Shown here: positions 7,719 through 28,839 of the stretch, piece by piece
Numbering within the stretch: position 1 is the stretch's first letter
Layout of the letters: each line of letters begins with the position of its first letter
Source of the DNA: an uncultured Candidatus Peribacteria bacterium
Lineage (GTDB): Bacteria > Patescibacteriota > Gracilibacteria > JBDHUY01
Direction of reading: 5' to 3'
Assembly (NCBI GenBank): GCA_964407085.1
Contig: CAYOUH010000001.1
Location: 1 to 31,926 of the forward strand
Length of the DNA stretch: 31,926 bases
Notes under the pieces: model-generated
Told to the model about the DNA's origin: nothing
What the model saw: only the letters and a program-made list of their open reading frames with translations
The model's database searches: none
Translations under genes and position numbers: made by a program

Positions 7719-7743
7719 GGAGGCTACATGAAAAGCATCCTCT

Positions 7744-7759
7744 CAGGATACCATTCATG
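7744..7759 (-). promoter_or_regulatory. Extended -10 promoter element CATGAATGGTATCCTG upstream of the lytic transglycosylase; identical copy at 24423-24438
   Basis: Contains TGgTATCCT, 26 nt upstream of ATG 7718. Exact 16-bp match to the element upstream of the response regulator. Confidence 0.55.
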
Positions 7760-7830
7760 GCTTCTCTCCGCGATTCATGAAAGACTGCGAACACCTGTTC
7801 CGCTTGACGTTTTATCTAAAAGTCCGCCCC

Positions 7831-8601
7831 CTACTGCGCCAATCTCTCCCACTCGCCACGTGAGAAGATGAGCTTGATTTGCGTATCTGAGACATTGATT
7901 ACGCGGACACCCTTCAGGATCGCGTCACGGTTGGCGGTGAGGAAGGTGTAGCGCTTCTGCATCGTGGAGAGCGCTTGCGAATACTGCCCATCGAAGCGCG
8001 AGATGGCACGGCGGGTTTCCTCAAAGGGTTCGATCTGAGCCTGGATTTGTTGCATGCGATCGAAGGCGAGCTGCGCAGCGTCGGGGACTTGGTTTTTCAG
8101 GGCCTCGCTGTAGGCCTTCTTGGCCACCTTAAGATCGTTATTGAGCGTTCGGATATTCGCGCGATAGTCCTCGGTCAGGGCTTTGTTTTCCGCTCGGATG
8201 CGGGTAATGAGGGTTGCCTCGGTTTGCAGCTGTTCGACATAGAGATCCAGCGCTGCCGCGCGGTCGGAGCTATCGTTGAGCGCCTTCAGGACATCGAAAG
8301 CCAGGAGTTCGCCAGTAGCGCGGACACGGCGGATATTGTCGCTGATGAGGCCCGGTTTTTCGTTCGTGTCCTCATTGAAGAAGAACCCGGCGGAAACACC
8401 TTCGTGGAACCCGTTAGGGATCTTGTCCGCCTGGTACGCGTTCTGCTCTACCACTCCTGCGGCAGCCGCCAAGCCCTCATCGTAGCTGACCGCCTGGGCT
8501 GTCGGGTTCGTGGACAGCGCCTGGAGCGTGACGATGATAAACGAAAGGAGGAAGGAGAAACCGAGGAGGCGTCTATAGATGGGCGAACCTGGGGTAACCA
8601 T
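7831..8601 (-). CDS. Hypothetical membrane-anchored coiled-coil protein
   Basis: Long ORF with N-terminal TM (RRLLGFSFLLSFIIVTLQAL) and a helical heptad-like body. Start 8601 chosen because a promoter lies at 8655-8682. Confidence 0.7.
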   Translation of the reverse strand: MVTPGSPIYRRLLGFSFLLSFIIVTLQALSTNPTAQAVSYDEGLAAAAGVVEQNAYQADKIPNGFHEGVSAGFFFNEDTNEKPGLISDNIRRVRATGELLAFDVLKALNDSSDRAAALDLYVEQLQTEATLITRIRAENKALTEDYRANIRTLNNDLKVAKKAYSEALKNQVPDAAQLAFDRMQQIQAQIEPFEETRRAISRFDGQYSQALSTMQKRYTFLTANRDAILKGVRVINVSDTQIKLIFSRGEWERLAQ

Positions 8602-8654
8602 GGGAGGCGCCGAGGGCGCAGAGAAACGATAGAAAACGCGGAAAGACAACAAGC

Positions 8655-8682
8655 ATTCTAGCCTAGATGTATATCCGGTCAA
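8655..8682 (-). promoter_or_regulatory. Sigma70-type promoter TTGACC-N16-TAGAAT
   Basis: Near-consensus -35/-10 pair about 54 nt upstream of ATG 8601. Confidence 0.6.
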
Positions 8683-8742
8683 TATTTTCTATCCGTGTCA
8701 ATACTCTCCTCCTGAAAGCCGTGGAGAACCGTCCCGTACCCG

Positions 8743-8748
8743 TATAAT
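8743..8748 (+). promoter_or_regulatory. -10 box TATAAT upstream of yhhQ
   Basis: Perfect -10 hexamer. It overlaps the ORF-track ATG at 8747, which argues against that start. Confidence 0.4.
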
Positions 8749-8857
8749 GCCGCCGACAATCACCCAATCCCATGCTCCACAGTACCCACAAGACGATCTG
8801 GTCGAGCTTCGCCTGAGGAATGAGAGGAATTTATCCAAGATCCAACTCCCATTTCCC

Positions 8858-9520
8858 ATGATCAACCTGTCTGACCGCGCTGCGCGGAAACTCATCATCG
8901 CTCTGACGCTGTACCTCACGTCCCTGCTCGCTGCCAACACGCTGGGACTCAAGCTCATGCCCTTCATCCTGGGCACGCACCTGTCCGTCTCGGTGTTTTT
9001 CTTCCCCTTCGTATTCCTCGCCACCGACGTAGTGGGGGAAGTCTATGGCAAGAAGGTGGCGAAGGGCTTCGTATTCGCCGGCATCCTGGCCAATCTCCTG
9101 TTCCTCCTGTACTCGATCATCTCCCTGCCCCTACCGTGGTCAGCGGACGCGGAATGGGTGAGGAGCAGCTACGGCACGGTGTTTGGCGTTTCGGCCCGCA
9201 TTGCCATCGCTTCGCTCGCGGCCTTCGCCCTGGCGGAGTACCAGGACGTATGGTCGTTCTTCCTGGTCCGCAAATGGACGGGGGGGCGGTTCTTTTGGCT
9301 GCGCTCGCTGCTGTCGAACCTCTGGTCACAACTGCTGGATACCGCCGTGTTCATGTTCATCGCCTTCTACGGCGTGTATTCCTTCGACGTCCTGATGGGG
9401 TCCCTCGTCGCATGGTGGCTGTACAAGGTCGCGATGGGAGCCCTCTACACGCCTCTCTCGTATTTGGGGCTGAAGCTGTTGAGGGAAAAGGATGGGCCCG
9501 AAGGAAACATCGAGGCGTAG
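8858..9520 (+). CDS. yhhQ: Queuosine precursor transporter (Vut_1/YhhQ, COG1738)
   Basis: Polytopic membrane protein with FPFVFLATDVVGEVYG, RIAIASLAAFALAEYQDV and RSLLSNLWSQLLDTAVF, all family signatures. Confidence 0.9.
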   Translation: MINLSDRAARKLIIALTLYLTSLLAANTLGLKLMPFILGTHLSVSVFFFPFVFLATDVVGEVYGKKVAKGFVFAGILANLLFLLYSIISLPLPWSADAEWVRSSYGTVFGVSARIAIASLAAFALAEYQDVWSFFLVRKWTGGRFFWLRSLLSNLWSQLLDTAVFMFIAFYGVYSFDVLMGSLVAWWLYKVAMGALYTPLSYLGLKLLREKDGPEGNIEA

Positions 9521-9530
9521 CATTTTTTTC

Positions 9531-9791
9531 ATGAGCCACTTCGGCAAACGTTTCGGCATCGCGCTGCTCCTGTGCATTCCATTCTTTTCCCTGGCGCATA
9601 TCGCAGCACTCCTTTCCACGCCACTATGGTGGAGGGTTGAAGCCTGGACAGGGTGGGAGTTGGCCGGGGGGCATGGGCCGAGTGAAGAGCTCCTCATAGG
9701 ATTCTGGATCATGGCGATCCTGGCAGCCTTCCTGACCGCCTTCCGACCTAAGCGTGGTGAGGGGACCCATGGTAAAATGGAAATAACGTAA
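9531..9791 (+). CDS. Small putative two-TM membrane protein
   Basis: ATG 10 nt after the yhhQ stop; two hydrophobic segments; no recognisable family. Confidence 0.4.
   Translation: MSHFGKRFGIALLLCIPFFSLAHIAALLSTPLWWRVEAWTGWELAGGHGPSEELLIGFWIMAILAAFLTAFRPKRGEGTHGKMEIT
9770..9778 (+). promoter_or_regulatory. Extended -10 (TGgTAAAAT) for the SIMPL gene
   Basis: TGn-TAnnnT match 35 nt upstream of ATG 9814. Confidence 0.45.
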
Positions 9792-9813
9792 TTCATTTCC
9801 TTTTCATCCTCCC

Positions 9814-10605
9814 ATGGACAATAAATCCTCCGTCGCCGGACTCTTTCTCCTTGGTATCCTCATCGCCGCCGGCATCGGGCTGCACGGCTACCTCACGCAG
9901 CCGAAGGGCGGGTCGCCCATCAGCGCTAGTGAACTCACCGGCGGGCAGAAGATTGGCATCCTCTCGGTCACGGGGGATGGGAAGGCATTGGCCCGGCCGG
10001 ACATGGTGAGCATCCAGGCCTCGTTCTCCGAAACCGATACCACGAGCGCCGCGGCGCTCGATAAGGTCAACCGCAAGGTCGCCGAGATCGTCAACATCGC
10101 TAAGGCCAACGGCGTCGCGGACAAGGACGTGCAGACCTCGGGTCTGTCGATCTATCCCGAATACGAGTATGGTTTCGGAGGAGGAACGCCCAAGCTCAAG
10201 GGCCAGCGCGCTACGGAGTCAGTAACCATCACGGTACGGGGCGTGGACGCGAAGGCGGAGAAGGCCTCGCGCATCATCGACCAGGTCAGCGCCATCGACA
10301 ACGTGCAGCTGGGGGGCATCAGCTTCGACATCGAGGACAAGACGAAGCTCTTCACGGAAGCCCGTGAAGCGGCATTTAAGAAGGCTAAGCAGAAGGCCGA
10401 GGAGCTGTCGAAGCTGGGCGGAGTGAAGCTGGCCAAGCCGGTCACGATCACGGACAGCGCCGTGGAATACTCCCCTCCGATCCTCAACTACGCCATGGCC
10501 GAGCGCAGCATGATCGCCGCCGACGGGGCCAAGGCCTCGACCCCAGTCCAGACGGGCGAGCTCTCCGTCACGGTGAACCTGTCGGTGGGTTGGGGAATTG
10601 AGTAG
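9814..10605 (+). CDS. SIMPL domain protein (DUF541/YggE/BP26 family)
   Basis: N-terminal TM, then ISVTGxG-like LSVTGDGKALARPD, DVQTSGLSIYPEY, GGISFDIED, EAREAAFKKAKQKAEELS and TGELSVTVNLSV. Confidence 0.9.
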   Translation: MDNKSSVAGLFLLGILIAAGIGLHGYLTQPKGGSPISASELTGGQKIGILSVTGDGKALARPDMVSIQASFSETDTTSAAALDKVNRKVAEIVNIAKANGVADKDVQTSGLSIYPEYEYGFGGGTPKLKGQRATESVTITVRGVDAKAEKASRIIDQVSAIDNVQLGGISFDIEDKTKLFTEAREAAFKKAKQKAEELSKLGGVKLAKPVTITDSAVEYSPPILNYAMAERSMIAADGAKASTPVQTGELSVTVNLSVGWGIE

Positions 10606-10614
10606 GCCCACCCC

Positions 10615-11604
10615 ATGACAGATGAAGCGGGAGGAAAATTGGAAATAGATACCGAAGCGTTCCTGGCCGAATACCAGGAGCTTTCGGCGTGGCAGAGCGC
10701 GGGGAGGGCATCACATCCCACCGTTTCCGAGCCCCTTGTCGGCAACGCGCTCGGCCAGGTGCTACAGGTCATGGATGCCAGGAGCCTGTCCACCGTCCTC
10801 CAATTCGAAGGGGGGTCGGATAATTTCAAGATAAATCTGGACCATGCCCGGTCCCTGCGCGATTCCGTGGAAGGTTTCCTGGGGCAGGGCATCGATCTAT
10901 GGAGCATCGACCTGGCCCATCCCCCCCGTGCTTCACAGGAGCCACTCAGGGGACTGTATGACTTATGGCTGCGCTACCGGCCTACCGGCCAACAAGCGCA
11001 AAGGTTCATCAAGGATGTAGCCACGCTCCTGGAAGATATCACCAAAGGCGCAGTAGGGGATACTATCGCGAGAGTCCGCGAAAGCGTGAAGGCCGCCGAA
11101 AGAGTCAAAGGCTCATTTTCGGTGTGGGACTTCGTTAACGAGCAAGCGCTTGATGCCGCCAAAAAGACTAATTCCGACGTCCCCTCCTATATCCGAAGGA
11201 ACGCCCGTAACAAAAAGGATTCCCTGCTCGTAGTGGTTTTTTCGCATCTCCTAAGTGGCATCATTCCTAAACCCTCCATCCTTCGTAATCCGAGGCATTT
11301 CCACTCAGACGAACTCAATGCGTTCATCTCCCGAATGGATGTATTGGAGAACCTCATCGGAGCGATAGAAGGATTGCGGGGGAGTATTGCATTATGGGAT
11401 CTCAAGGGTGATAGTCCTGAGGAACCAGGCCGAAGCCTGAGAGATCTTTGGGATAGATGCTTGGAGAAGGGTAGTCCAGAGGCATTCGTCGATTTCCTCG
11501 TCCAGATCGCCAACCAAAGGCGGATCATGACACAATCACCCGACATACTACAAAGAGCCAGGACTTTCATCATCCCCGATCCGATCCGTCATTCCAGAAA
11601 ATAG
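10615..11604 (+). CDS. Hypothetical protein, 329 aa, with a possible internal duplication
   Basis: Long ORF 9 nt after SIMPL that ends just before a terminator. Codon usage looks more A/T-ending than its neighbours (by eye). Confidence 0.65.
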   Translation: MTDEAGGKLEIDTEAFLAEYQELSAWQSAGRASHPTVSEPLVGNALGQVLQVMDARSLSTVLQFEGGSDNFKINLDHARSLRDSVEGFLGQGIDLWSIDLAHPPRASQEPLRGLYDLWLRYRPTGQQAQRFIKDVATLLEDITKGAVGDTIARVRESVKAAERVKGSFSVWDFVNEQALDAAKKTNSDVPSYIRRNARNKKDSLLVVVFSHLLSGIIPKPSILRNPRHFHSDELNAFISRMDVLENLIGAIEGLRGSIALWDLKGDSPEEPGRSLRDLWDRCLEKGSPEAFVDFLVQIANQRRIMTQSPDILQRARTFIIPDPIRHSRK

Positions 11605-11611
11605 CAGCACT

Positions 11612-11641
11612 AAAAAGCCCCGCCATGTGGCGGGGCTTTTT
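11612..11641. terminator. Bidirectional rho-independent terminator
   Basis: AAAAAGCCCCGCCA-TG-TGGCGGGGCTTTTT between convergent genes. Confidence 0.85.
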
Positions 11642-11657
11642 ATCGCCAGACCGAGGA

Positions 11658-11924
11658 TCACATTCCCTTGTTCATGGGACGGGAACAGTTGCCCATGCAG
11701 CACTTACTCCAGGAAAGGATGGACCACAGGCCCGAAATCCCGACCAGGATGTAGACGATCCATTCGATCGTCGGGTACCCGCCGAGGAGGAGGTTGACGA
11801 CGTTCCAGTTGGAGCCGGCGAAACCGCCGATCCCGACCAGTCCCCAGTTGAGGGCGCCGATGATGACCAGCACCATGGCCGCGCCGCAGAGGCCGCACAT
11901 GCCGCGGGAGGAGTTGGAGTCCAT
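11658..11924 (-). CDS. DUF378 family small membrane protein
   Basis: LVIIGALNWGLVG and IVYILVGISGL signatures. Start at ATG 11924. Confidence 0.85.
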   Translation of the reverse strand: MDSNSSRGMCGLCGAAMVLVIIGALNWGLVGIGGFAGSNWNVVNLLLGGYPTIEWIVYILVGISGLWSILSWSKCCMGNCSRPMNKGM

Positions 11925-12056
11925 AGGGAAAATGGATGAGGAAATAATTGGCCTCATGCTAGTCCTGCCCCAGCGGAAGGGAAGGCAATGCGATTGACTC
12001 GCATGCTGCAGCGTATCGAAAAGCAACAAGCCTTTTTGCCTGATAAATGGCAGTTT

Positions 12057-14240: not shown

Positions 14241-14316
14241 GAAGAAAATGCCGCGAGAGTATACGCGAAGCGGAAGCCCCATACCAATGGAAACCTCATC
14301 CTTATCACGGAGGGGA

Positions 14317-17300
14317 CTACTGCAGCGTCTTGGTTCCCTTGCGCTCGAGCATGCCGGTCGCGGGGAACGTGACGAAGAACGTCGTCCCCTTGCCTTCTTC
14401 GGATTCGAAGCGGATCGTCCCCCCAGCCTGCTCGACGGCGAATTTCACGATGTAGAGACCGAGGCCATTGCCTTCTGCCACGTTGACGCGAGCGTTCTCG
14501 GCGCGGAAGAATTTGGAGAAGATCTTTTCCTGTTCCGCCTTCGGGATCCCGTAGCCGGTATCGGCCACGATGATATTCACGTCTTGGATACCCTTGGTGA
14601 TGCTTACCCGTACCGTTCCGCCATCAGGAGTGTACTTCACGGCGTTGGAGAGGAGGTTCTGCAGGAGGATCCGCAGGATCGTCGGATCGGCGGTGAAAGC
14701 GGAGAGCGTATTATCGTATTCTTTCAGGATCGAGAGCTTTTTCGTTTCGACCTGGGCATGGAGCTCCCAGAGGACGCTGTCGGCGGTCTTGGGCAGATCG
14801 GTGGGGACGGGATGGACGGCGAGGTTCCCGAGATCCACGCGGGAGACATTGAGCAAGTCAGTGACGAGGGTCACCATGCGTTTATTGCCCTGACTGACTT
14901 CGTCCAGGTACTGCTTCTGGTCGGGATTGAGTTCTCCCGCATCCCCGGACAGTAGCATCTCCACGTACCATCCTATGGCCGTGAGCGGGGTCAGGAGCTG
15001 GTGCGAAGCGAGGGAAACGAAATCGGTTTTGGCGCGGTTGATCTCCTGTTCCTTGGTGATGTCCTCGAGGATGAGGATGGTATCCGTGCCGCGCTCGGTG
15101 CCACTGTCCTGCTGGACCAACGCGCTGGTGGCACGGATGAAGACATCCCTCCCATCCGGGAGATGTAGCAGGATATCGTCCTTGCTGGCTACCTGCCCGG
15201 TGGCCAACGTCATGTCGAGCGGGAATTCCTCTTTCGGGTACGGTTGCCCGTCAGGCCTACAGAATGCGGAGAGATAGGAGGGGGAATTACGACCCAGGAC
15301 CGAGGCGGCGTTGTCGCCGAGTAGTTCCTTCCCCACCCCGTTCACGAGCAGTATTTCGCCGGTTCCCGCGTTGGAGAGAAAAACCCCAAAAGGAAGATGC
15401 TCGAGCAGGAGCGATAGGAGGGCACGCTGCTTCTCCACTTGGCCTTCTTCCTCGGACAGTTCGCGGGTCATTTCCTGGGCGATCCTCTCGGCGCGGCGGC
15501 GGGAGGTGGTCAGGAAATACACGATGCCGGAGAATAAGATACTGAACACTAAGCCGATGATGAGCGCGAAGGTCGGGAGGTTGCGTTGGGCGGAAGTAAG
15601 CCCCGTCTCGGACGAGACGGCGAAATTGACCGTCCATGCCCGGTCGAGCAGGTAGGCCACGCGGGTTTTGGAGAGGATTTCCGTTTCAGTGGAAACGTTG
15701 GATGTCTTGCGGGCGTAGAGTTCACGCTCCTTATCCGGGTCGTATTCCCAGATCCCGTCGAACACCTGCAGGCGGAAGGCGGGATTGTGGTTGGTCAACG
15801 CACCTTCCACCATCTCGGACACGCGGATGAGGTGGTAGAGGTAGCCGGTGATATTGTCGCGCCTTTCCTGGACGGTGGATAGCCGGACGCCGCCCTGGTA
15901 CACGGGAGTACAGAGCATGACGCCGACCTGCTCATATCCGTTCTGGTCACGAGCGATGACGACTTTCGGGGACAGGACGGATGATCCTGTATCGCGGGCG
16001 GCGAGGAGCGATGCGGACAGGTTGGGGTCGGATAGGAGGTCGATCCCCAGTGCGGGCTTATCCTTTTTGGCCAGGGTCTCGAAGTGCATAACAGGAGCGT
16101 ATTCCGTGCGGTTCCCGGGAGGAGAGATGCCATACGTGGGATCCGCACTGCGGGCAGATGCGAGGAAGGCGTCGCGCTCCGAAGACCGTACATACGCCGC
16201 GAATCCCACACCCTCGAGACCAGGGTAGTGCTGGTCCGAATCAATGCTCTCCATGTAGGCTTTCCAGTCGAAACGCTCCTTGGTATCGGCAGTAAATCCC
16301 TGCTTCAGGCCGTTTTCCAGGATCCTGGTAGCGCTATCCACCTGCGTCGTGATCGCGCGCTCCATACTGTCGATCTCCTGGGCGAACCAGAGTTGCTCCT
16401 GCTGGTCGGTGATGCGTTGCGCGAAACGCCATACCAAGAGAGTGATCAGGACGAGGACAAGGAGGGCGATGGCCGGAATGACGATCGGGAGGCGGCTCAC
16501 AGATTCCTTTTCTCCCTTTCCTGACATCGGACGGTGGCTGCCATGCCACAGGGAAACCAGCAGGAAGATTGCCAGGAGTCCCACCGCAGAAGGGATGATG
16601 TAGGATATGATGATCGCCTTCCATTTCTCGTAGATCGCCTCCTGGACCTGTGAGAGTACGCTGTCGCGCGAAGGAGTGTAAAAGGAATTGCTGTACGGTT
16701 GGGATTCACCATACGGACTAGACGACGATCCGATGGCTCGATCCTCGTAGGTCACCAACCTCCCTGACACCGGTTCGACCCAGTAGGTGAGCCGGATGTC
16801 GAAGGTCAGGTCGCGCGGGACGTCACCCTCATCCCGGTAGAATCCAATGAGCGGTGGATCGTTGGTCTGGAACTCGGCCTCGTACTGGTAAACCGTCAGG
16901 CCTTCGATTTCCGTTTCCCCCTTGAAGGTGAAGGCTGCAGGGGCATTGTAGTGAACCGGCCAGGAGACGAAGTCCTGTTTCCCGACGTTCCCCGGAGCGA
17001 ACAGATAGCCCGTGCGGTCGCGATCACCAGCACCCTTGAGGTTTTCACGCGTCCGGGCACTCACTCCGTAGATCCGGGCCACGGAACGGCCCTTGCCTTT
17101 CGTAGCCCCGCGCGCGTTGAAAATTCCGCGGACGAAGAGCGTGTCGTCCTGCTTCCCCACAACGTCGAAAAACAATTTCCCGACAGAAAGCGTCTCTGGT
17201 GCGAAATCTTCCACCTGCGCATCGTAGAGCTTCTGACGAGAAATGATATCCGCCTCATAGGTGAAGTCGGGACGAAGGGAAAGGAGGCGAGGCACGGCTC

Positions 17301-17385
17301 CATAGATCCATACCGGCACGGACAGGAGGAGGAAGGTCGCGAGACTGATACGCGCCAAGAATATGGAGCGGAGGAGGGTAATCAT
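14317..17385 (-). CDS. Membrane sensor histidine kinase: DUF3068-like + CHASE + PAS + HisKA + HATPase_c
   Basis: H-box ASHQLLTPL, N-box QNLLSNAVKYT, D/G boxes DTGYGIP and GNGLGL. CHASE-like YPGLEGVGF...GIDLLSDP...AARDTG...TPVY. PAS-like PDGQPYPKEEFPL...LEDIT. The N-terminal domain has FKGETEIEGLTVYQY and YWVEPVSGRLV, resembling DUF3068. Confidence 0.9.
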   Translation of the reverse strand: MITLLRSIFLARISLATFLLLSVPVWIYGAVPRLLSLRPDFTYEADIISRQKLYDAQVEDFAPETLSVGKLFFDVVGKQDDTLFVRGIFNARGATKGKGRSVARIYGVSARTRENLKGAGDRDRTGYLFAPGNVGKQDFVSWPVHYNAPAAFTFKGETEIEGLTVYQYEAEFQTNDPPLIGFYRDEGDVPRDLTFDIRLTYWVEPVSGRLVTYEDRAIGSSSSPYGESQPYSNSFYTPSRDSVLSQVQEAIYEKWKAIIISYIIPSAVGLLAIFLLVSLWHGSHRPMSGKGEKESVSRLPIVIPAIALLVLVLITLLVWRFAQRITDQQEQLWFAQEIDSMERAITTQVDSATRILENGLKQGFTADTKERFDWKAYMESIDSDQHYPGLEGVGFAAYVRSSERDAFLASARSADPTYGISPPGNRTEYAPVMHFETLAKKDKPALGIDLLSDPNLSASLLAARDTGSSVLSPKVVIARDQNGYEQVGVMLCTPVYQGGVRLSTVQERRDNITGYLYHLIRVSEMVEGALTNHNPAFRLQVFDGIWEYDPDKERELYARKTSNVSTETEILSKTRVAYLLDRAWTVNFAVSSETGLTSAQRNLPTFALIIGLVFSILFSGIVYFLTTSRRRAERIAQEMTRELSEEEGQVEKQRALLSLLLEHLPFGVFLSNAGTGEILLVNGVGKELLGDNAASVLGRNSPSYLSAFCRPDGQPYPKEEFPLDMTLATGQVASKDDILLHLPDGRDVFIRATSALVQQDSGTERGTDTILILEDITKEQEINRAKTDFVSLASHQLLTPLTAIGWYVEMLLSGDAGELNPDQKQYLDEVSQGNKRMVTLVTDLLNVSRVDLGNLAVHPVPTDLPKTADSVLWELHAQVETKKLSILKEYDNTLSAFTADPTILRILLQNLLSNAVKYTPDGGTVRVSITKGIQDVNIIVADTGYGIPKAEQEKIFSKFFRAENARVNVAEGNGLGLYIVKFAVEQAGGTIRFESEEGKGTTFFVTFPATGMLERKGTKTLQ

Positions 17386-17391
17386 CCCATC

Positions 17392-17400
17392 ATTGTACCA
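17392..17400 (-). promoter_or_regulatory. Extended -10 (TGgTACAAT) positioned for a leaderless kinase transcript
   Basis: Only 6 nt separate the -10 hexamer from ATG 17385. Confidence 0.5.
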
Positions 17401-17456
17401 AAAACGGCTTGGAAAAGGAACGCGATGGTCCTAATAGGAGGTGGACTACCGAATAC

Positions 17457-17491
17457 AAAAACCGCCCCGTACCACGTGGTACGGGGCGGTT
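17457..17491 (-). terminator. Rho-independent terminator after the tandem pilins
   Basis: Perfect 32-bp palindrome AACCGCCCCGTACCACGTGGTACGGGGCGGTT (17460-17491) ending in a T-tract on the minus strand. Confidence 0.8.
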
Positions 17492-17511
17492 CAGGAGGTC
17501 GTGCCGGGAGA

Positions 17512-17967
17512 CTACCTCGTAGCCGTGATCGTGGCGCCCTGCTCGGCACCAGGAGCGGAGACTGTCACACGGCCGTTGGCGTCCTTGCTTACCTGGTAGC
17601 CTGTCGTGGTGGCTGTTCCAGCAACGGGGTCCTTGGGCAGGGCGACCAGGTACTTGCCGTTGGTCGTCAGGACAGAGAGATCGATGAGACCCGAGCACGA
17701 AGCAGCACCGGTCGCACAAATGTCGGTCGGCGTGACGGTGATGGTCGAAGCTACTGTACCGGCGTTGTCGATCGAGTGCTGGTAGATGGCATTGAGGATC
17801 GTGTTCACGTCGGCCTTGCGTTGGGCGTTCTTAGTCTCCCCCAGCTGCTTGCCAGGGTTCAGGGCGACGATAACGATACCGGCCAGGATGGCGATGCCAG
17901 CCACGACCAGGAGGATTTCCAGGAGGGTGAAGCCTCCGCGGCGGGAAGAAAGGGTGAATTTCTTCAT
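17512..17967 (-). CDS. Type IV major pilin, copy 2
   Basis: Class III signal peptide RRGG/FTLLEILLVVAGIAILAGIVIVALNP (Glu5 present) and a Cys pair. Start MKKFTLSS at 17967. Confidence 0.9.
   Translation of the reverse strand: MKKFTLSSRRGGFTLLEILLVVAGIAILAGIVIVALNPGKQLGETKNAQRKADVNTILNAIYQHSIDNAGTVASTITVTPTDICATGAASCSGLIDLSVLTTNGKYLVALPKDPVAGTATTTGYQVSKDANGRVTVSAPGAEQGATITATR
17835..17937. repeat. 103-bp exact direct repeat, copy in pilin 2 (other copy 18347-18449)
   Basis: Base-by-base comparison shows identity across the cleavage-site and N-terminal helix coding region. Confidence 0.9.
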
Positions 17968-18026
17968 AAGAGAAAGGGGGTAAGGATAGGTGAGATAAAG
18001 AAAAATACAGGGGAAGAAGCCCACAC

Positions 18027-18482
18027 TTAGCGTGTGGCCGTGATCGTGGCGCCCTGCTCGGCACCCGGAGCGCTTACCGTTACACGACCATTGGCGTCCT
18101 TGCTGATGTTGTATCCCGTTGAGTTGGCAGTGGCCGTCGTGGGATCCTTTGGCATGGCCACCAGATACTTCCCGTTCGTCGTCAGGACGGAGAGGTCAAT
18201 GATTCCCGTACAGGTACCGCCGGTCGTACAAATAGCGGTCGGTGTGGTCGTGATGGAAGCGGGGACGGTCCCTACGTTATCGATGGAGTACTGGTAAACA
18301 GCGTTGAGGATCGTGTTCACGTCGGACTTGCGCTGGGCGTTCTTAATCTCCCCCAGCTGCTTGCCAGGGTTCAGGGCGACGATAACGATACCGGCCAGGA
18401 TGGCGATGCCAGCCACGACCAGGAGGATTTCCAGGAGGGTGAAGCCTCCCTTAGCGGCAGCTTGTGTGCGTGTTTGTTTCAT
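18027..18482 (-). CDS. Type IV major pilin, copy 1
   Basis: KGG/FTLLEILLVVAGIAILAGIVIVALNP, Cys pair, close paralog of the downstream pilin. Confidence 0.9.
   Translation of the reverse strand: MKQTRTQAAAKGGFTLLEILLVVAGIAILAGIVIVALNPGKQLGEIKNAQRKSDVNTILNAVYQYSIDNVGTVPASITTTPTAICTTGGTCTGIIDLSVLTTNGKYLVAMPKDPTTATANSTGYNISKDANGRVTVSAPGAEQGATITATR
18347..18449. repeat. 103-bp exact direct repeat, copy in pilin 1 (other copy 17835-17937)
   Basis: Direct sequence comparison. Confidence 0.9.
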
Positions 18483-18517
18483 GGATATTGGAGATAGTGG
18501 GGAACGTATCTGAATAA

Positions 18518-18546
18518 AGCATACAATTCAGCCTCTGGGAGCGCAA
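18518..18546 (-). promoter_or_regulatory. Internal promoter TTGCGC-N17-TATGCT for the major pilins
   Basis: -35/-10 pair with a 17-nt spacer in the gap between the PilX-like gene and pilin 1. Confidence 0.5.
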
Positions 18547-18565
18547 GTGGGGGGACGATCTCGAT

Positions 18566-18979
18566 TTAGGGGGTTTCCTGCCAGGACGAAATGATGACTT
18601 GGGGATTAATAGCGGCGATGACCACAGTGAGACGGCGCACGACGGTGCCTACCGTTCCGGTGGAAACAATCTGGCGGCTCTCCCCGCCCAGATCCGAGAC
18701 CGTGGCGGTACAGGTTCCTGATGAGAGCGTGAGGTTGGCGCTGCCAAGGTAGGCGGTAGAGGCGCGTATGGACTCGAGGGAATTCTCGACACAGGCAATG
18801 GCCAGTTCCTTAGCCTTGCCGGCTTGCTCGAGGGCGAAGCTGTCACGCGAGGTATTGATTCCGAAGACCAGTACGGCGACCACGATCGAAATACCGACCA
18901 TGCCTACGAGGGTTACCGCCAGGAGGCTAATGAACCCAGGAGACGCCCGCGTACCTGGTTGATGCTTTTGTGCATTCAT
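18566..18979 (-). CDS. PilX/GspK-like minor pilin
   Basis: G/FISLLAVTLVG prepilin motif lacking Glu5, in the last position of the minor-pilin run. Confidence 0.75.
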   Translation of the reverse strand: MNAQKHQPGTRASPGFISLLAVTLVGMVGISIVVAVLVFGINTSRDSFALEQAGKAKELAIACVENSLESIRASTAYLGSANLTLSSGTCTATVSDLGGESRQIVSTGTVGTVVRRLTVVIAAINPQVIISSWQETP

Positions 18980-18992
18980 AATGGCTTTTTAG

Positions 18993-19547
18993 TCAGCGTA
19001 TCCCGGCCGAGCCACTGAAAGTCTTGGAGTATTGGTATTCATTGCGGGCCGAAGCGTTATTACGGGCTATAGTAAACTGCGTGCTGATGATGCCCTCCGT
19101 CCCACTCCTCCCATAGTTGGCAAAGGTGAGGGCGCTGATCGTTATCCGCGAAGGAGTAAGGGGGATAGCTGCCCCTGCGCCCTCCTGTACCATGAGGACT
19201 CCATTGGAGAGTGAGAAGATGGTGGGGTTCTTGGCACTGTCGGGAACCGAAAGGGTCAGAGTGGATTGACTCCCTCCGATCGCAGGAGCGGTTATGCCGT
19301 TGGCATTCCTGATGGCCGATCCAATCCGCTCCAGCGTAGTGCGCCCCACACTGTCGACGTCGGAGACGGTTTCGTTCTTTACCCGCGAGCGCAGCGTCAC
19401 ATAGTATGTCAGGGAGACGGACGTCAGCAGGATCCCCGTCAGCGTGACGTACAGGAGGAGTTCGAGCAACGTGAAGCCCTTACGTTTCGATTGCGAAGTT
19501 CTCGACTCGCCATCCGTACCATTGTGGGAACAGGACATAGTTGTCAT
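18993..19547 (-). CDS. PilW/GspJ-like minor pilin
   Basis: KG/FTLLELLLYVTLTGILL. The ATG at 19547 forms an ATGA overlap with the upstream stop. Confidence 0.8.
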   Translation of the reverse strand: MTTMSCSHNGTDGESRTSQSKRKGFTLLELLLYVTLTGILLTSVSLTYYVTLRSRVKNETVSDVDSVGRTTLERIGSAIRNANGITAPAIGGSQSTLTLSVPDSAKNPTIFSLSNGVLMVQEGAGAAIPLTPSRITISALTFANYGRSGTEGIISTQFTIARNNASARNEYQYSKTFSGSAGIR

Positions 19548-20473
19548 TCGTCGGAAGTACAATCGATCTCGGCCGCATCACAGGGGGGCGGGATGAAGTT
19601 GGTCAGGGTCCTGGTCGAACCGTCCGTCATTGTGAAGACGATGGTAAACTTCGTACCCACCATGTTTTGGTCGAACCAGAAGCGGATGCGCCTTGAGGTG
19701 TTTTGATTGAGCGTGTAGTTGCTGACATCCAGTTCCGTACCAGACAATTGCGGCCCATCTGGACTTCCCACCCCTGTCGCCTCCCAGATCGTTCCACCGC
19801 CCCCTTGCATCCTGACGGAGGTCACCCGCTGGATCACATTCGGACTCAGGTCTACCCAGGTCAGCTTGATCTTGTTGATCGTGATGGGGGAAGATCCTTC
19901 ATTTGACAGGAGGAGCCGGCGCAGGCGGGAATACGGAGGATCGGTGTTGGGGCCGCCGATCTTGGCCAGGCTCGTATCGATCCCGAGGTTGTTCCCCATG
20001 GTGCCGCCACCGGGTGTGGATGTGGGGGTGGGAGAAGGTGTGGCACTAACACGTTTCCAGTTAGATACATAGCTCACGAGGGAAACACTTCCTGTGCGTT
20101 GGGGATCCTGTTGCCACGTGACCGTGGACGTTATTTGTTTGCGGTTGGCGTCGACGGTGGCGATGGTGATCTGGCGGGTGAAGATGCCGCTCACGTCGGA
20201 GGACCCACTCAGGATCCATTGGTTGCCCGAGAGGGCCAGCCCATGGGTTCCATTGGTAAGATTTGAGAAGCTGGCATTGCGCAGATTGGCCACAATCTCC
20301 AAACCTTCCTCCGCCAGGGCCACGGCCCGGCCGCGTTCCCCCGAGACAGAGGCATTGCGCTGGCCGATGGCCAAGACCCCGATTACCCCCGTGACGATGA
20401 TCCCATAGAGCGCCACCGCGAGGAGGACTTCGACTTGGGAGAATGCCCGATTGGAGAATTTCTTCAAGGACAT
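19544..20473 (-). CDS. PilV/GspI-like minor pilin with a Pro/Thr linker and an extra C-terminal beta-rich domain
   Basis: RA/FSQVEVLLAVALYGII, then RAVALAEEGLE and ITSTVTW, linker SATPSPTPTSTPGGG and about 150 additional residues. Confidence 0.8.
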   Translation of the reverse strand: MSLKKFSNRAFSQVEVLLAVALYGIIVTGVIGVLAIGQRNASVSGERGRAVALAEEGLEIVANLRNASFSNLTNGTHGLALSGNQWILSGSSDVSGIFTRQITIATVDANRKQITSTVTWQQDPQRTGSVSLVSYVSNWKRVSATPSPTPTSTPGGGTMGNNLGIDTSLAKIGGPNTDPPYSRLRRLLLSNEGSSPITINKIKLTWVDLSPNVIQRVTSVRMQGGGGTIWEATGVGSPDGPQLSGTELDVSNYTLNQNTSRRIRFWFDQNMVGTKFTIVFTMTDGSTRTLTNFIPPPCDAAEIDCTSDE

Positions 20474-20481
20474 GGGAAGTT

Positions 20482-20925
20482 TTAATAGTCGATCGTTCCT
20501 TTTGCGTTGATCACAACCGTCCGCACATTGCTCCCAGAAGTCAGCGTAAAGGTTCCCGTCTGCTGCGGGTCTCCGGTCAGTTTGGAGAAAACCACTTCAG
20601 TCAGTCCACTCGGGACGATAGCGGTACTAATGGCAAAGGTTTCGTCGCATGTCCTAACCCGCAAGACGTAGCTTGTACCGCAGAAGATTGTTATGCTTCC
20701 TGTTTGTACACTTCCCCCCCATGCGTTATCCGCATCCATTGCTATGGACAGGGTTTGGGCACGACGCAAGGAAGAGACAATGGCATTGGCCCCGATGTCC
20801 AACTCGTTCCTGGTCTGCATGCTGAGGAAAAGCGGCATGGAGGAAGCGGAGATGATCCCGATCACCGCGACCGAGAGGATCAGTTCCAGGATGGTAAAAC
20901 CGGATTGTCTCTGGGAAGCATTCAT
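20482..20925 (-). CDS. FimT/FimU (GspH)-like minor pilin
   Basis: SG/FTILELILSVAVIGII, LRRAQTLS, WG and C-terminal VVINAKGTIDY. Start MNASQ at 20925. Confidence 0.8.
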   Translation of the reverse strand: MNASQRQSGFTILELILSVAVIGIISASSMPLFLSMQTRNELDIGANAIVSSLRRAQTLSIAMDADNAWGGSVQTGSITIFCGTSYVLRVRTCDETFAISTAIVPSGLTEVVFSKLTGDPQQTGTFTLTSGSNVRTVVINAKGTIDY

Positions 20926-20930
20926 ACGGT

Positions 20931-22241
20931 TCAGATACCACCATTGAAATTCCCGACGAGGCTGTAGAGCGGAAGGATGACCGCCACGGCGACCGTCACC
21001 ACGCCGAGCCACACCATGACGAGCAGGATGGGTTCGAGGATGACACTCAGGTTCTTGGTCGTGGTATTGAGCTTCTGCTCGAAGATCTCGCTGACCTTCA
21101 TGAGGGTGACAGCGAGGTTGCCCGACTGCTCGGACGTGACGATGAGCTGCTGGAAGGGCAGGGGGATGAGCTTCGGGCTAGACTTGTAGGAGGCGAAGCT
21201 GTGCTCGAGCGAATTGCCCTCCTCGATGCGGTCACGCAGGTGCGTGTAGAATTTCTGGTAGCGGTAGTACGTGGTGGCACTGGCGAGGGAGTTGAAGGAT
21301 TCTACGACGGGAAGGCCGGAACTGAGCAGCGTCCCGAGGATATAGCCCAGGCGTGCCATCTCGCCCTCCAGGATGAGCTTACGGATCGGCGGGATGAAAA
21401 ACAGGATGGCTTGCCCGATGAAGTTCGTCCGCTTGTAAACGAAGACGAAGTACATCACCAGTCCCGCCAGGAGGAGAACGGCCGGGATCACGTACACGCC
21501 ATACACTCCGAGGAAGTTTCCCAATCCGATGAGCAACTTGGTCACCAGTGGCAGCGGGATATTGAGCTGGGTGAAGACGCTCGAGAGCTTGGGCAGGATA
21601 AACCAGGCGATGCCCAGGCCGATAACCGCCGTCAGGCCGAAGACGAAGACCGGGTACATGAGCGCGGACTTCACCTTGGAACCGAATTCGCGCTCCTTCT
21701 GCTGCTGGGCGGCGATGACCTGGAGATTCTGCCCCAGGCGGCCGGTCTGCTCGCCGACCCGGATGAGGGCTATAGCATAGGTCGGAAATATGCCCGTAAC
21801 CGCGAGGGATTCCCACAACGTACCTCCTCCGTCGATGCCGTTCTCGATCTGGGTGATGGCCTCGCGCATCGCCTTGGACTTGATGTCCTTCTTGATGGCG
21901 CCCAATGCCGTCATGATCACCATGCCGCTGGTGAGCAGCATGGAGAGGTTCTCGATGAAATAGCTGAGTTCCGCCCCGACGCCGAATTTGGAAAACGACT
22001 TGGCTTTAGCGACCTTAGCCACGGGTTCTGCCTTCTCGGGCTTGGTATCGGCATGGGGAGGTTCGGGACGCTTCTCCACCGTGGGGAGATTGATGGGAGG
22101 AAGGGGGCGTTCCATCACTTCCGTCACGCGGATGGCCGAGGGTGCCTTTTCGTTCACAGAAGGCTTGGCCTTGGGAGAAGCCTTTTTCTCGGCCACTTTG
22201 GCGTTCTTTTCTTTCGCGGGGGCCGCGGCGTTCTTTTTCAT
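20931..22241 (-). CDS. pilC: Type IV pilus/T2SS platform protein PilC/GspF
   Basis: Two T2SSF repeats (NLSMLLTSGM...GEQTGRL and GTLLSSGL...SEQSGNL), KVKSALMYP, LEPILL...AVILPLY. Confidence 0.92.
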   Translation of the reverse strand: MKKNAAAPAKEKNAKVAEKKASPKAKPSVNEKAPSAIRVTEVMERPLPPINLPTVEKRPEPPHADTKPEKAEPVAKVAKAKSFSKFGVGAELSYFIENLSMLLTSGMVIMTALGAIKKDIKSKAMREAITQIENGIDGGGTLWESLAVTGIFPTYAIALIRVGEQTGRLGQNLQVIAAQQQKEREFGSKVKSALMYPVFVFGLTAVIGLGIAWFILPKLSSVFTQLNIPLPLVTKLLIGLGNFLGVYGVYVIPAVLLLAGLVMYFVFVYKRTNFIGQAILFFIPPIRKLILEGEMARLGYILGTLLSSGLPVVESFNSLASATTYYRYQKFYTHLRDRIEEGNSLEHSFASYKSSPKLIPLPFQQLIVTSEQSGNLAVTLMKVSEIFEQKLNTTTKNLSVILEPILLVMVWLGVVTVAVAVILPLYSLVGNFNGGI

Positions 22242-23971
22242 TTCCGTTTGGATTTGGATTTCAGGACGGGCTTGGTAGGCTTACGGGCAGGCTTCGTCAC
22301 TGGGGAGGCCGCCGGGTCGGCCGCCACGACGGTAGCGGACTTCGGGGGAGCGGCGACACGCAGGAGTTCTTCGATGGTCGTTTGGCCGTTCTTGATCTTC
22401 TCGATGCCGTCCTCGAACATGGTGAGGGATCCCTGCTCGCGGGCGAGGTGGGCGATCTGCCCGCCGGAAGGATTCTTGAGCATCAGTTCCTCCATCTCCT
22501 CACTGATCTCGATGAACTCGAACAGGGCGATGCGGCCCTTGTAGCCCGACATCGAGCACACGGTACAGCCCTTCCCCCGGTAGAGCGTCGTCTGGGAGGA
22601 GAGGTAGGGGACTACACTGGCGGGCATGCGGGCGATATCATCCTTGGTCAACGCCTTACTGTAGCGGCAATTGTCGCAAATCTGGCGGACCAGGCGTTGG
22701 GCGATAACGAGTTCGAGGGTGGAAGCCAGGAGGAAGGGCTCGATACCGATCTCGAGCAGGCGCGGGATGGCGGTCGAGGCATCGTTGGCATGGAAGGTGG
22801 AGAGGAGGAGATGCCCCGTAAGCGCCGCATTGACGGAGATTTCAGCCGTCTCCTTATCGCGGATTTCCCCGACGAGGATGATGTTCGGATCCTGGCGGAC
22901 GATGGAGCGGAGCCCTTGCGCGAAGGTCAGGTTGGTCTCGACGTTCACCTGGATCTGGTTGATGCCGGCAATGCGATACTCGACCGGATCCTCGATCGTC
23001 GTGAGATTCGCATCGGCCCGGTTGAGCAGCTTGAGCAGCGAATACAGGGTCGTGCTTTTCCCGGATCCGGTAGGCCCCGTGACCAGGATCATCCCGAACG
23101 GCTTGTGCGAGGCCTCCGTCATCATCTTCTGGTGGCGCGGGGAGAGGCCGATATCACTGAGCGAGAAGCTGCGCACGTAGGAGGATAGGATACGGGCGAC
23201 CACCTTCTCCCCGTTGAGCGTGGGGACGATAGAGATGCGCAGGTCGGCATAGCTGTCGCCCAACGTCACGCGCATGGCCCCATCCTGTGCCGCGTAGTGC
23301 GCATCGATGCGCAAGCGGGCCTGCACCTTGATGCGGTTGATCACGTTGTCGTAGGCTTCCTTGGGCAGGCGTCCCGCTTCGCGCAGCACGCCATCCACGC
23401 GGAAACGGATGATGACGTCCTTCTCCTGCGGCTCGAAGTGGATATCGGACGTATGCAGCGCTACCGCATCGCGGAAGATCTCCTCGAGGAGTTCGGGCGC
23501 TATCTTGCTGCTGTCTTTGAGGATCGCGCTGAAGCGCGTTTCGAGCGGTTGCTGGTAGTGAACAAACTGCTCGATGATGTCCTCGGGGAAGGAGTAGTGG
23601 AAAACGATCTTCTGCTTGGGGAAGAAGGCCTTCACTTCAGAAGAAAGCTTTTCGTTAGTGGGATCACCGGCGGCGACGTGCACCCCGGAGGCATCCTCAA
23701 AGAGCGCCAACACCCCGTACTCGCGGGCGAAGTTCTCAGGGATCTTCTGGGCCAATTCCTTGGCTGGCGCCTGGACTTTCAGGTCCGCGTACGGCACGCC
23801 GAAGGACTCGGCGATGGCTTGTCCCAGGAGGGATTTGGTAAACAGCCCAGAGGAAACGAGATAGTTTTCCAGGGTTGTCTTGTGCGTCACCGCTTCCTGC
23901 TCCGCCTTCACTAGGTCCTGTTCCGTGAGATAGTTCTCACTGAGGAGGATTTTCTTGAGGTCGATTTCCAT
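22238..23971 (-). CDS. pilB: Type IV pilus assembly ATPase PilB/GspE
   Basis: SDIHFEP, RFRVDGVL, Walker A GPTGSGKST, TIEDPVEY, RQDPNIILVGEIRD, TGHLLLSTFHAN, and the Zn motif CDNC...CTVC. ATGA overlap with pilC. Confidence 0.94.
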   Translation of the reverse strand: MEIDLKKILLSENYLTEQDLVKAEQEAVTHKTTLENYLVSSGLFTKSLLGQAIAESFGVPYADLKVQAPAKELAQKIPENFAREYGVLALFEDASGVHVAAGDPTNEKLSSEVKAFFPKQKIVFHYSFPEDIIEQFVHYQQPLETRFSAILKDSSKIAPELLEEIFRDAVALHTSDIHFEPQEKDVIIRFRVDGVLREAGRLPKEAYDNVINRIKVQARLRIDAHYAAQDGAMRVTLGDSYADLRISIVPTLNGEKVVARILSSYVRSFSLSDIGLSPRHQKMMTEASHKPFGMILVTGPTGSGKSTTLYSLLKLLNRADANLTTIEDPVEYRIAGINQIQVNVETNLTFAQGLRSIVRQDPNIILVGEIRDKETAEISVNAALTGHLLLSTFHANDASTAIPRLLEIGIEPFLLASTLELVIAQRLVRQICDNCRYSKALTKDDIARMPASVVPYLSSQTTLYRGKGCTVCSMSGYKGRIALFEFIEISEEMEELMLKNPSGGQIAHLAREQGSLTMFEDGIEKIKNGQTTIEELLRVAAPPKSATVVAADPAASPVTKPARKPTKPVLKSKSKRK

Positions 23972-23996
23972 GCCGTTTCAAAGGAAAGATCCATCG

Positions 23997-24377
23997 TCAG
24001 CTGGAAAGCTTCTGCACCTTCTCGACCAGGTCGGTCAGGGCCGTGCTCGATTTTACGAAGTACTCGTTCGCTCCCATGGTCTTAGCCCGATCGATGTCCT
24101 CCGGTTGACCCAGGTTCGAAGCGACGATGACGGGGACCTTGGCACCACGTGCACGGACTTTCGACAGCACCGTGAAACCATCCACCTTGGGCATGACGAG
24201 GTCGAGGATAACCACGTCGAACATATTCGCGTCGAGCAATTTCCCGGCTTCCTCACCGTCATACGCCACGTTGGTTTCAAAACCCGCCTTTTGAAGCTTG
24301 AGTTCCAGGGCGCGGGCCAATGGCTTCTCGTCCTCAACAATCAGGACGCGCTTGGCTTTGGTCGGTTTATCAGCCAT
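23997..24377 (-). CDS. Single-domain response regulator (receiver only)
   Basis: VLIVEDE, phospho-acceptor ILDLVMP, DGF, VASN and YFVKS; no output domain. Start MADKP at 24377. Confidence 0.9.
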   Translation of the reverse strand: MADKPTKAKRVLIVEDEKPLARALELKLQKAGFETNVAYDGEEAGKLLDANMFDVVILDLVMPKVDGFTVLSKVRARGAKVPVIVASNLGQPEDIDRAKTMGANEYFVKSSTALTDLVEKVQKLSS

Positions 24378-24422
24378 AGGGGGATGAGAGGATTTCCAGG
24401 ACGGACGAAATATCCATCCAGA

Positions 24423-24438
24423 CAGGATACCATTCATG
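24423..24438 (-). promoter_or_regulatory. Extended -10 promoter element CATGAATGGTATCCTG for the RR-pilB-pilC-pilin operon; identical to 7744-7759
   Basis: Lies just downstream of the RRM terminator and 45 nt upstream of ATG 24377. Confidence 0.55.
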
Positions 24439-24491
24439 ACCAATTTTTCCTAGTCGGGAATCCGTCCCACCGGAGACTTATGAGATACACC

Positions 24492-24516
24492 AAAAAGGCC
24501 ACCCCGGAGGGTGGCC
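24492..24516 (-). terminator. Rho-independent terminator of the RRM gene
   Basis: Minus strand GGCCACCC-TCCG-GGGTGGCC-TTTTT. Confidence 0.8.
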
Positions 24517-24545
24517 TCATGGAAAGACGAAATTTCCCGAAGGAA

Positions 24546-28242: not shown

Positions 28243-28251
28243 TGGTAGAAT
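28243..28251 (+). promoter_or_regulatory. Extended -10 (TGgTAGAAT) for prgI/traC-like, giving a very short leader
   Basis: TGn-TAnnnT match 12 nt before ATG 28264. Confidence 0.5.
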
Positions 28252-28263
28252 CGCATGATACCC

Positions 28264-28839
28264 ATGCAATACAAAATCCCCCAAGATACCGGCACGGCGG
28301 AGACCTTCCTCAACCTCGGCATCATCAAGATGTCGCTGAAGCAAATGATCATCCTGTTCGTGGGCTTCGGGATCGGATACTTGCTCTATCTCTCGCTCTT
28401 TCCTCTGTTCGGGACGTATATCGCGCTCGTCCCGGCCGGGATCGTGGGTATCATCGCGTTGGCCTTCGCCTTCGTGCGAAAGGATAATATGAGCTTTGCA
28501 CGGATGCTCCTCTTGCTCATCGAAATGCGGATCAACCCCATGGCCCGGCACTGGATAAGCGGAGGAGCGACCCTGTCGCCCTTCGACCAGATCCTGTCGA
28601 TGCAGGGCCCCGTCGAGGTGAAGAAGGATACCTCCAAGCAGGACCGTAAGATCGAGCAGATCGGATCACTGGTCGAGACCCTGGACCACACCAACATGAC
28701 CCCCATCCTGGAGCGGGTCGACGAGGTGGGGCAGCGCACCGCGGCGCAGAACAGCCGCGTAGGACTCCTCGAAGGATTCGCCCAGGCAGCTGCCAAACGG
28801 ATCAGTACGCATACCCAGAACGGAACCCCCCGCCCATGA
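28264..28839 (+). CDS. PrgI family (VirB3-like) membrane protein
   Basis: MQYKIPQD start, SLKQMII, two TMs (FVGFGIGYLLYL; IALVPAGIVGIIALAFAFV), then a cytoplasmic tail. ATGA-coupled to the TraC-like gene. Confidence 0.7.
   Translation: MQYKIPQDTGTAETFLNLGIIKMSLKQMIILFVGFGIGYLLYLSLFPLFGTYIALVPAGIVGIIALAFAFVRKDNMSFARMLLLLIEMRINPMARHWISGGATLSPFDQILSMQGPVEVKKDTSKQDRKIEQIGSLVETLDHTNMTPILERVDEVGQRTAAQNSRVGLLEGFAQAAAKRISTHTQNGTPRP

Follow-up and report, generated by a model that had tools for sequence, protein, structure and literature searches.

The window analysed here, 31,926 nucleotides (nt) of contig CAYOUH010000001.1 from an uncultured Candidatus Peribacteria bacterium (assembly GCA_964407085.1), raises the question of why a pair of hydrolase genes and a separate receiver/pilus operon should be preceded by the same 16-nt sequence. 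This sequence, CATGAATGGTATCCTG, was confirmed as an exact match on the minus strand at both of its sites (7744-7759, copy 1; 24423-24438, copy 2), and no further copy was found in the window even when up to two mismatches were allowed. An earlier note on this DNA had proposed that a shared regulator or sigma factor reads the element and co-expresses pili and wall-lytic enzymes as an attach-and-breach regulon. We propose instead that each copy is very probably the core of an ordinary housekeeping-type promoter of the sigma-70 family with an extended -10 element. The fit to a genome-wide sequence model, the recurrence across the genome, the position ahead of genes and the conservation among orthologues argue for this reading, from which the start sites, the sigma factor and the activity of the promoters are predicted. 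The leftover identity of the CAT triplet is a coincidence within a large and tightly defined promoter family rather than a sign of common regulation.

The setting of the pair was largely as had been described. Both copies are intergenic and oriented toward the gene downstream. Copy 1 lies in a gap of 112 nt between the stop of an unannotated 283-aa gene (7831) and the ATG (7718) of the gene for an SLT-domain protein, and copy 2 is flanked on one side by the terminator of a gene for an RRM protein and on the other by the ATG (24377) of a receiver gene. The distance of 45 nt from the end of copy 2 to its ATG was reproduced, while that at copy 1 was measured as 25 nt and not 26 nt. In both copies GGATG follows three bases downstream, which extends the similarity to 21 of 24 nt (repeat family D8). 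Two further exact 16-mer pairs are dispersed in the window (5069/6120, direct; 13566/27001, inverted), and pairs of exactly 16 nt number 662 across the genome, so that a bare 16-mer pair is at the level of chance. The caveat that had accompanied the proposal, namely that a single such pair is not very improbable and that its position carries the argument, was therefore sound. The position is indeed non-random, because both copies are promoters.

The general promoter of this genome was characterized from the assembly, which comprises 1.0 Mb in 162 contigs with 58% GC and is about 87% complete; the genomes of this phylum are about 1 Mb each. Genes were called with a home-made caller that takes the start of the longest open reading frame (ORF) and designates 81% of the sequence as coding, and since this caller is crude, all counts of intergenic sites are approximate. 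The k-mers enriched upstream of genes included TATAAT, TATACT, TACAAT, GGTATACT and GTACAATG. When the hexamer alone was fixed, no other triplet preceded it nearly as often as TGG, G followed the hexamer, positions 11-12 counted from the hexamer start were G and A/G, and G was depleted beyond them; positions 11-13 read G-A-W both in this analysis and in the model sites described next. Our promoter model is an iterated weight matrix learned genome-wide, with which 1.97 million positions were scored at a cut-off of 10 bits. Its consensus consists of a G-rich block, a T-tract or (G)GAAT, TGG, TAtAAT, G, four unspecified bases and G-A-W at the start. There were 192 sites above the cut-off. For 135 of them, an ORF that looks coding starts no more than 125 nt downstream, the median distance being 25 nt. 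Measured from the end of the hexamer to the start codon, the distance genome-wide has a median of about 25 nt and a 90th percentile of 67 nt. At exactly -23 to -18, with a spacer of 17 nt, these sites show the -35 signal T-T-G-(G/C)-a-a followed by an A-rich stretch. As this signal lies outside the matrix and at the position expected of a -35 element, it provides an independent check that the model sites are sigma-70-type promoters.

Several features of the model sites bear on the composition of the 16-mer. G-A occupies positions 11-12 in 117 of the 192 sites, the start box often being GGAAT(A), and about one third of the sites have the G-rich block and T-tract ahead of TGG. AATGG occurs in 20 sites and GAATGG in 15. 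The genome has 49 occurrences of the pattern AATG[GA]TAnnnT, and 31 of these fall within the 19% that the gene calls leave uncovered. Gene starts showed no Shine-Dalgarno signal; the leaders are poor in G, and TGn-TATA[A/C]T boxes stand near the starts. The 3' end of the 16S rRNA, sought as an explanation for the missing signal, was not in the assembly. C is found at -1, -2 and -3 in 50, 48 and 40% of the 807 predicted starts, a CC-ATG context exemplified in the window at 7719-7721 and 24378-24380. Most genes have a short leader, and only some, such as the histidine kinase gene at 17385, look leaderless. A literature search found no promoter consensus or start-site description for Patescibacteria.

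Both copies of the 16-mer fit this model. Copy 1 (7744-7759, minus strand) is the core promoter of the SLT gene, with TGG at 7753-7751, the hexamer TATCCT at 7750-7745 and G at 7744; it scored 17.5 bits and ranked about 58th among all positions. Copy 2 (24423-24438, minus strand) is the core promoter of the receiver/pilus operon, with TGG at 24432-24430, TATCCT at 24429-24424 and G at 24423; it scored 13.7 bits, a value reached by about 110 positions. The hexamers end 26 and 46 nt before the ATGs of copies 1 and 2, respectively, inside the genome-wide range. Read as CA-TGAAT-GG-TATCCT-G, the 16-mer consists of preferred bases except for CA and for the T in place of G in TGAAT, and about 18 of the 21 bases common to the two copies fall at positions preferred in every promoter of this genome. 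The extended -10 element already recognized in the 16-mer was thus upheld, with TGG-TATCCT in both copies and TGnTAnnnT in all four of the receiver promoters described below, whose spacers have diverged. The part left unexplained at the time, CATGAA, divides in two: GAAT is accounted for as part of (G)GAATGG, a frequent form of the consensus, while CATG is not conserved and reads GAGA, AAAA or GGCG in orthologues.

The shared GGATG would be the start-site box, in which G-A-T occupies the positions around the start. TGG-TATCCT would be bound by RNA polymerase carrying the primary sigma factor, and after melting of the DNA, transcription would begin at the A of GGATG (7738 and 24417). At copy 1 the box spans 7736-7740 (minus strand), and the predicted start at 7738, 7 nt after the hexamer as suggested by the genome-wide G-A-W, would give a leader of about 20 nt. 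At copy 2 the box spans 24415-24419 (minus strand) and is conserved as rGATrG in orthologues, and the start predicted on the same basis at 24417 would give a leader of about 40 nt. Upstream of copy 2, CTAGGAAAAA (24444-24453, minus strand) holds a putative -35 box, TAGGAA (24452-24447), that lies 17 nt upstream of the hexamer and matches the local T-T-G-G/C-a-a at five of six positions. TAGGAA was also considered as a special -35 box and rejected; about five instances have TAnnnT 15-17 nt downstream, a number estimated not to exceed the chance level, and the -35 consensus of the genome is TTG(g/c)aa.

The other sites of this class in the window were found in the same kind of position. Seven sites exceeded 10 bits, the two 16-mer copies among them, and all seven lie just upstream of gene starts. 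On the plus strand, TGC-TATACT-attgGGAAT (hexamer 1750-1755, 25.1 bits) precedes a VirD4-like gene starting at 1780 (Pfam T4SS-DNA_transf), TGG-TAAAAT (9773-9778, 13.8 bits) precedes a SIMPL/DUF541 gene starting at 9814 (PF04402), and TGG-TAGAAT (28246-28251, 19.8 bits) precedes a gene starting near 28255-28264. The 28246 site forms a divergent pair with another at 28260, and its orthologous site in the relative L019 has an equal score and precedes PrgI/TraC-like genes. On the minus strand, TGG-TACAAT-gatgGGATG (17392-17397, 22.5 bits) belongs to a CHASE histidine kinase gene whose ATG (17385) stands exactly 7 nt after TACAAT and thus at the predicted start, so that its message is probably leaderless.

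We examined the conservation of the receiver promoter in four upstream regions, that of the window and those of three relatives from Logan contigs (L019, L020 and L021) whose receiver proteins are 93, 89 and 88% identical. Little of the spacer is conserved. The parts that have been kept are the terminator hairpin, CTAGGAAAAA, AATG(G/A)TA(T/G)C(C/A)T and (G/A)GAT(G/A)G. CTAGGAAAAA is invariant in all four regions with diverged flanks, while the hairpin of the RRM gene is kept with a changed sequence. In place of the CATG of the 16-mer the three relatives have GAGA, AAAA and GGCG, and in L019 the hexamer is TAGCAT, which keeps TAnnnT and breaks the ATCC/GGAT symmetry. The matrix trained on the present genome picks the orthologous receiver-promoter sites in L019 and L020. 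For the SLT protein, the search returned one relative with 95% identity, in which the 16-mer is identical and the intergenic region differs by 1 nt; with so little divergence in the sole relative, the SLT footprint is uninformative. The SLT protein had no match at 1e-10 in 150 genomes of the phylum. The family-level relative G001 has a PilB only 43% identical, too distant for comparison, and yielded no SLT orthologue with the query used. Related RNA and DNA come from wastewater, and related sequence is present in Logan contigs of three wastewater metatranscriptomes, mostly at 90-95% similarity; these contigs gave no cover of the SLT locus.

The regulon proposal fares differently. It holds that a dedicated regulator or alternative sigma factor reads the 16-mer, or GAATGG-TATCCT-G-N3-GGATG, and so co-expresses the pili and the wall-lytic enzymes. 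The exact 16-nt identity together with GGATG and the unusual TATCCT hexamer common to both copies are in its favour, as are a third occurrence of CATGAATGGTA (contig C61, position 4395) and the four or five sigma-70-family proteins encoded in the genome, three of which are like extracytoplasmic-function (ECF) sigma factors in size. Yet a scan of the genome, which is about 87% complete, for copies of the 16-mer at up to two mismatches, which the earlier note expected to be enriched before envelope or contact genes, returned only one more copy, and this near-copy stands before the gene for the tRNA CCA-adding enzyme. The copy, CGCGAATGGTATCCTG, has two mismatches and lies 44 nt before a gene with a PolyA_pol head, RNA-binding and HD domains; the third GAATGGTATCCTG is likewise before the CCA-adding enzyme gene. 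The looser AATGG-type promoters (AATGGTAnnnT) precede MgtC/DUF4010 and DUF1003 genes and those of seven proteins without Pfam families. The bases beyond the general consensus, CATG, are not kept in the orthologous receiver promoters, where conservation of the motif had been anticipated, and TATCCT itself has become TAGCAT in one of them. The bases that the two copies have in common coincide with the general promoter consensus, which also stands before the VirD4-like, SIMPL and CHASE kinase genes, and the motif is not restricted to envelope genes. Moreover, ECF promoters normally lack the TGn-TAnnnT architecture. We consider a dedicated regulator very unlikely. It is likewise very unlikely that the promoters with doubled (G)GAAT, one copy directly ahead of TGG and one at the start site (GGAAT-N12-GGAAT, with the variant TGAAT...GGATG), form a sub-class of a lineage-specific factor that co-controls the pilus operon and the wall hydrolases, or, in a broader form of the idea, that the G-A-W/GGAAT start box is a new promoter element of bacteria without Shine-Dalgarno sequences.

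We explored the possibility that the symmetry ATCC-N5-GGAT, present in both copies, is an operator for a dimeric repressor or an RNA hairpin that links the two loci. Copy 1 forms the left arm of an imperfect palindrome of 33 nt found at this copy only (7727-7759, minus strand; arms 7759-7746 and 7740-7727, 11 of 14 positions complementary, loop TGAGA). Its RNA folds at -17.2 kcal/mol with a z of -4.4, and none of 200 shuffles was as good; it was also marked as a weak hairpin resembling a terminator. With a further CATGAAT box at 7772-7778, 19 nt upstream, the region has three CATGAA boxes inside 55 nt. In contrast, copy 2 and the upstream regions of the receiver-gene orthologues fold no better than shuffles, the symmetry is lost in L019 and no compensating change restores it, and the long palindrome is unique in the genome. 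The left arm is also upstream of the predicted start and would therefore be absent from the RNA made by the SLT promoter itself. A palindromic operator as a genome-wide motif was rejected as well, because scans for CATGAA-N4-ATCC and ATCC-N5-GGAT gave no further promoter-associated copies. An operator or hairpin linking the loci is highly improbable. At copy 1 the palindrome may serve the hydrolase genes only, as an operator or as a hairpin of read-through RNA, with no link between the two loci.

A coding role for the 16-mer was considered in addition. The ATG within it could be the start codon of a protein or of a leader peptide (MNGIL...), and at copy 2 it shares the reading frame of the receiver gene; it has C at -1 as do most starts here, and many real genes in this genome begin with ATG-AAx-xxx-ATC-CTx. 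Against this, the frame at copy 1 is not that of the SLT gene and reaches a stop after 31 codons, and the receiver protein has 126 aa in all gene calls. The ATG is missing in the three orthologues, which read GAGAAAT, AAAAAAT and GGCGAAT, and the proposal was rejected for this lack of conservation; we regard it as almost certainly wrong. A leaderless mini-ORF from the ATG of GGATG (4 and 15 codons, with its end at the main start or close to it) was also tried and discarded, the ATG being ATA in L019 and the frames and stops differing in L020 and L021.

Several observations weigh against the assignment of the two copies to the general promoter class. The SLT promoter has TCGCGG at the -35 position and thus no recognizable -35 box. 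A -35 box is dispensable where an extended -10 is present. TATCCT is a weak variant of the hexamer, with C at the fourth position in 7-11% of the model sites, and is barely enriched upstream of genes (1.26-fold). An E. coli-type scanner (TTGACA/TATAAT) called neither copy; this scanner found no more sites in the genome than in shuffles, which indicates that it is unsuited to this genome. The start sites at 7738 and 24417 are predictions from sequence, and the SLT promoter could be compared with one nearly identical relative only. Finally, over the 21 promoter pairs of the window, the chance of such an identity is about 1e-3, which is still a tail event.

This last point deserves closer consideration. 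From the matrix frequencies, two independent promoters would be identical at all 16 positions with a probability of about 7e-6 per pair, which is about 30,000 times the value for random sequence; exact identity becomes plausible only through the large number of windows and pairs inspected. The 197 best sites form 19,306 pairs, and the longest runs of in-register identity among these measured 12 nt (40 pairs), 13 nt (nine), 14 nt (11), 15 nt (three) and 16 nt (two). The distribution of run lengths is a smooth and continuous tail, with 16 runs of 14-16 nt, and GGAATGGTAGAATG is common to three unrelated promoters. The 16-mer pair is the extreme of a distribution and was noticed since the best repeat of the window was sought. 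The same low probability under independence could speak for short-patch copying of the promoter core between the loci, by gene conversion or duplication, with about 24 nt of common descent. A further point in favour of such copying is that CATG, which reads GAGA in the 93%-identical orthologue, is exactly where the receiver promoter of the window departs from that orthologue, and this difference makes it identical to the SLT promoter. However, the similarity ends with the 24 nt on both sides, the in-register flanks matching at about 10 of 21 positions upstream and 4 of 11 downstream, and comparable identities of 14-16 nt exist between many unrelated promoters. We hold copying to be very unlikely, and even if true, it would leave the function unchanged.

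With the two copies taken as general promoters, the model delimits the transcription units of this part of the window. The hydrolase pair consists of the SLT-domain gene (5853-7718, minus strand; 621 aa; PF01464 at 9e-11 and PF18979 at 6e-6) and, after it, the DUF5715 gene (4562-5914, minus strand), and it has its own promoter with the added palindrome. The receiver/pilus operon (17390-24377, minus strand) was assigned by Pfam matches and comprises the receiver gene (23997-24377), PilB (22238-23971), PilC (20931-22241) and pilin-like genes to about 17512. The receiver is a stand-alone protein without a DNA-binding domain (Pfam), and its homologues carry the names Magasanikbacteria, Parcubacteria or Patescibacteria. 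The operon is set apart as its own unit by the intrinsic terminator of the RRM-protein gene upstream (24495-24518, minus strand; a 10-pair stem followed by a T-run), and it extends from the promoter at 24429 to a terminator with a 15-pair stem at 17492-17459 (minus strand). The CHASE histidine kinase gene (14317-17385, minus strand; assigned by ORF and Pfam) has its own, probably leaderless promoter.

Some further observations were made on these genes. A pilin-like gene is duplicated in tandem (17519-17937 and 18034-18449), with two blocks that are 78% and 88% identical at a spacing of about 512 nt. In the leader of the receiver gene, 24388-24404 matches at 16 of 17 positions both 17911-17927 and 18423-18439, which encode the N-terminal TLLEIL motif of the tandem pilin-like genes; this match is either chance or a leftover of a pilin gene start. 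The direct 16-mer pair noted above, ATCGAGAAGCTTGCTG on the plus strand (5069-5084 and 6120-6135), is common to the coding regions of the DUF5715 and SLT genes.

Other observations concern promoters and repeats elsewhere in the genome. Two promoters (G000:C11:49 and C11:2457) have an exact stretch of 37 nt in common, containing a terminator-like hairpin, a T-tract and CGG-TATGAT, so that terminator and promoter are duplicated together as one module; many other promoters likewise take their spacer from the T-tract of a hairpin upstream. An ECF-size gene of the sigma-70 family (G000:C54:3700-4000, minus strand) is preceded by CTAGGAA-N16-TATGAT-CCTGTC, which resembles the -35 box and ATCCTGTC in the receiver promoter; its promoter probably belongs to the same general class. 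A family of short intergenic repeats (...TTCCTGAG...GCGAAGGATC... / GGATCCTTCGC...), partly hairpin-forming and with exact common runs of 16-33 nt, occurs on C3, C7, C33, C55, C73, C108, C117, C118 and other G000 contigs.

These results remove a false lead, since the sequence gives no evidence for an attach-and-breach regulon, and the promoter model they provide can be used for an uncultured bacterium from wastewater resembling those of the candidate phyla radiation (CPR). With a consensus this long and sharp, identical 14-16-mers before unrelated genes are to be expected in such genomes and should not be taken as regulons. The long consensus with its start box, the terminator T-tracts serving as spacers, the kinase gene with its probable lack of a leader and the SLT palindrome are by-products of modest interest.

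In dedicated envelope regulons, such as the control of pilin genes by PilS/PilR with sigma-54 and the envelope regulons of ECF sigma factors, one factor and one motif stand before linked envelope operons, which is what the earlier note had proposed. Unlike in these systems, the promoters here have no GG-N10-GC or GGAAC-N16-CGTC-type architecture and the receiver protein has no DNA-binding domain. A closer parallel is provided by the extended -10 promoters (TGn-TATAAT) of the sigma-70 class and the "-16 region" TRTG promoters, which are reportedly used by Bacillus and other Gram-positive bacteria. The promoters of the present genome differ from these in the strong G after TG (TGG), in the very informative G-A-W start box, often GGAAT, and in the spacer, where a G-rich block gives way to a T-tract or GGAAT, as well as in the weak TATCCT of both copies. 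They are alike in that TG stands one base before the TAnnnT hexamer, that the -35 box would be optional and that the start is predicted about 7 nt downstream, and the AATGG prefix, with A/T at -17/-16, resembles TRTG. The architecture at the two loci matches that of the extended -10 promoter.

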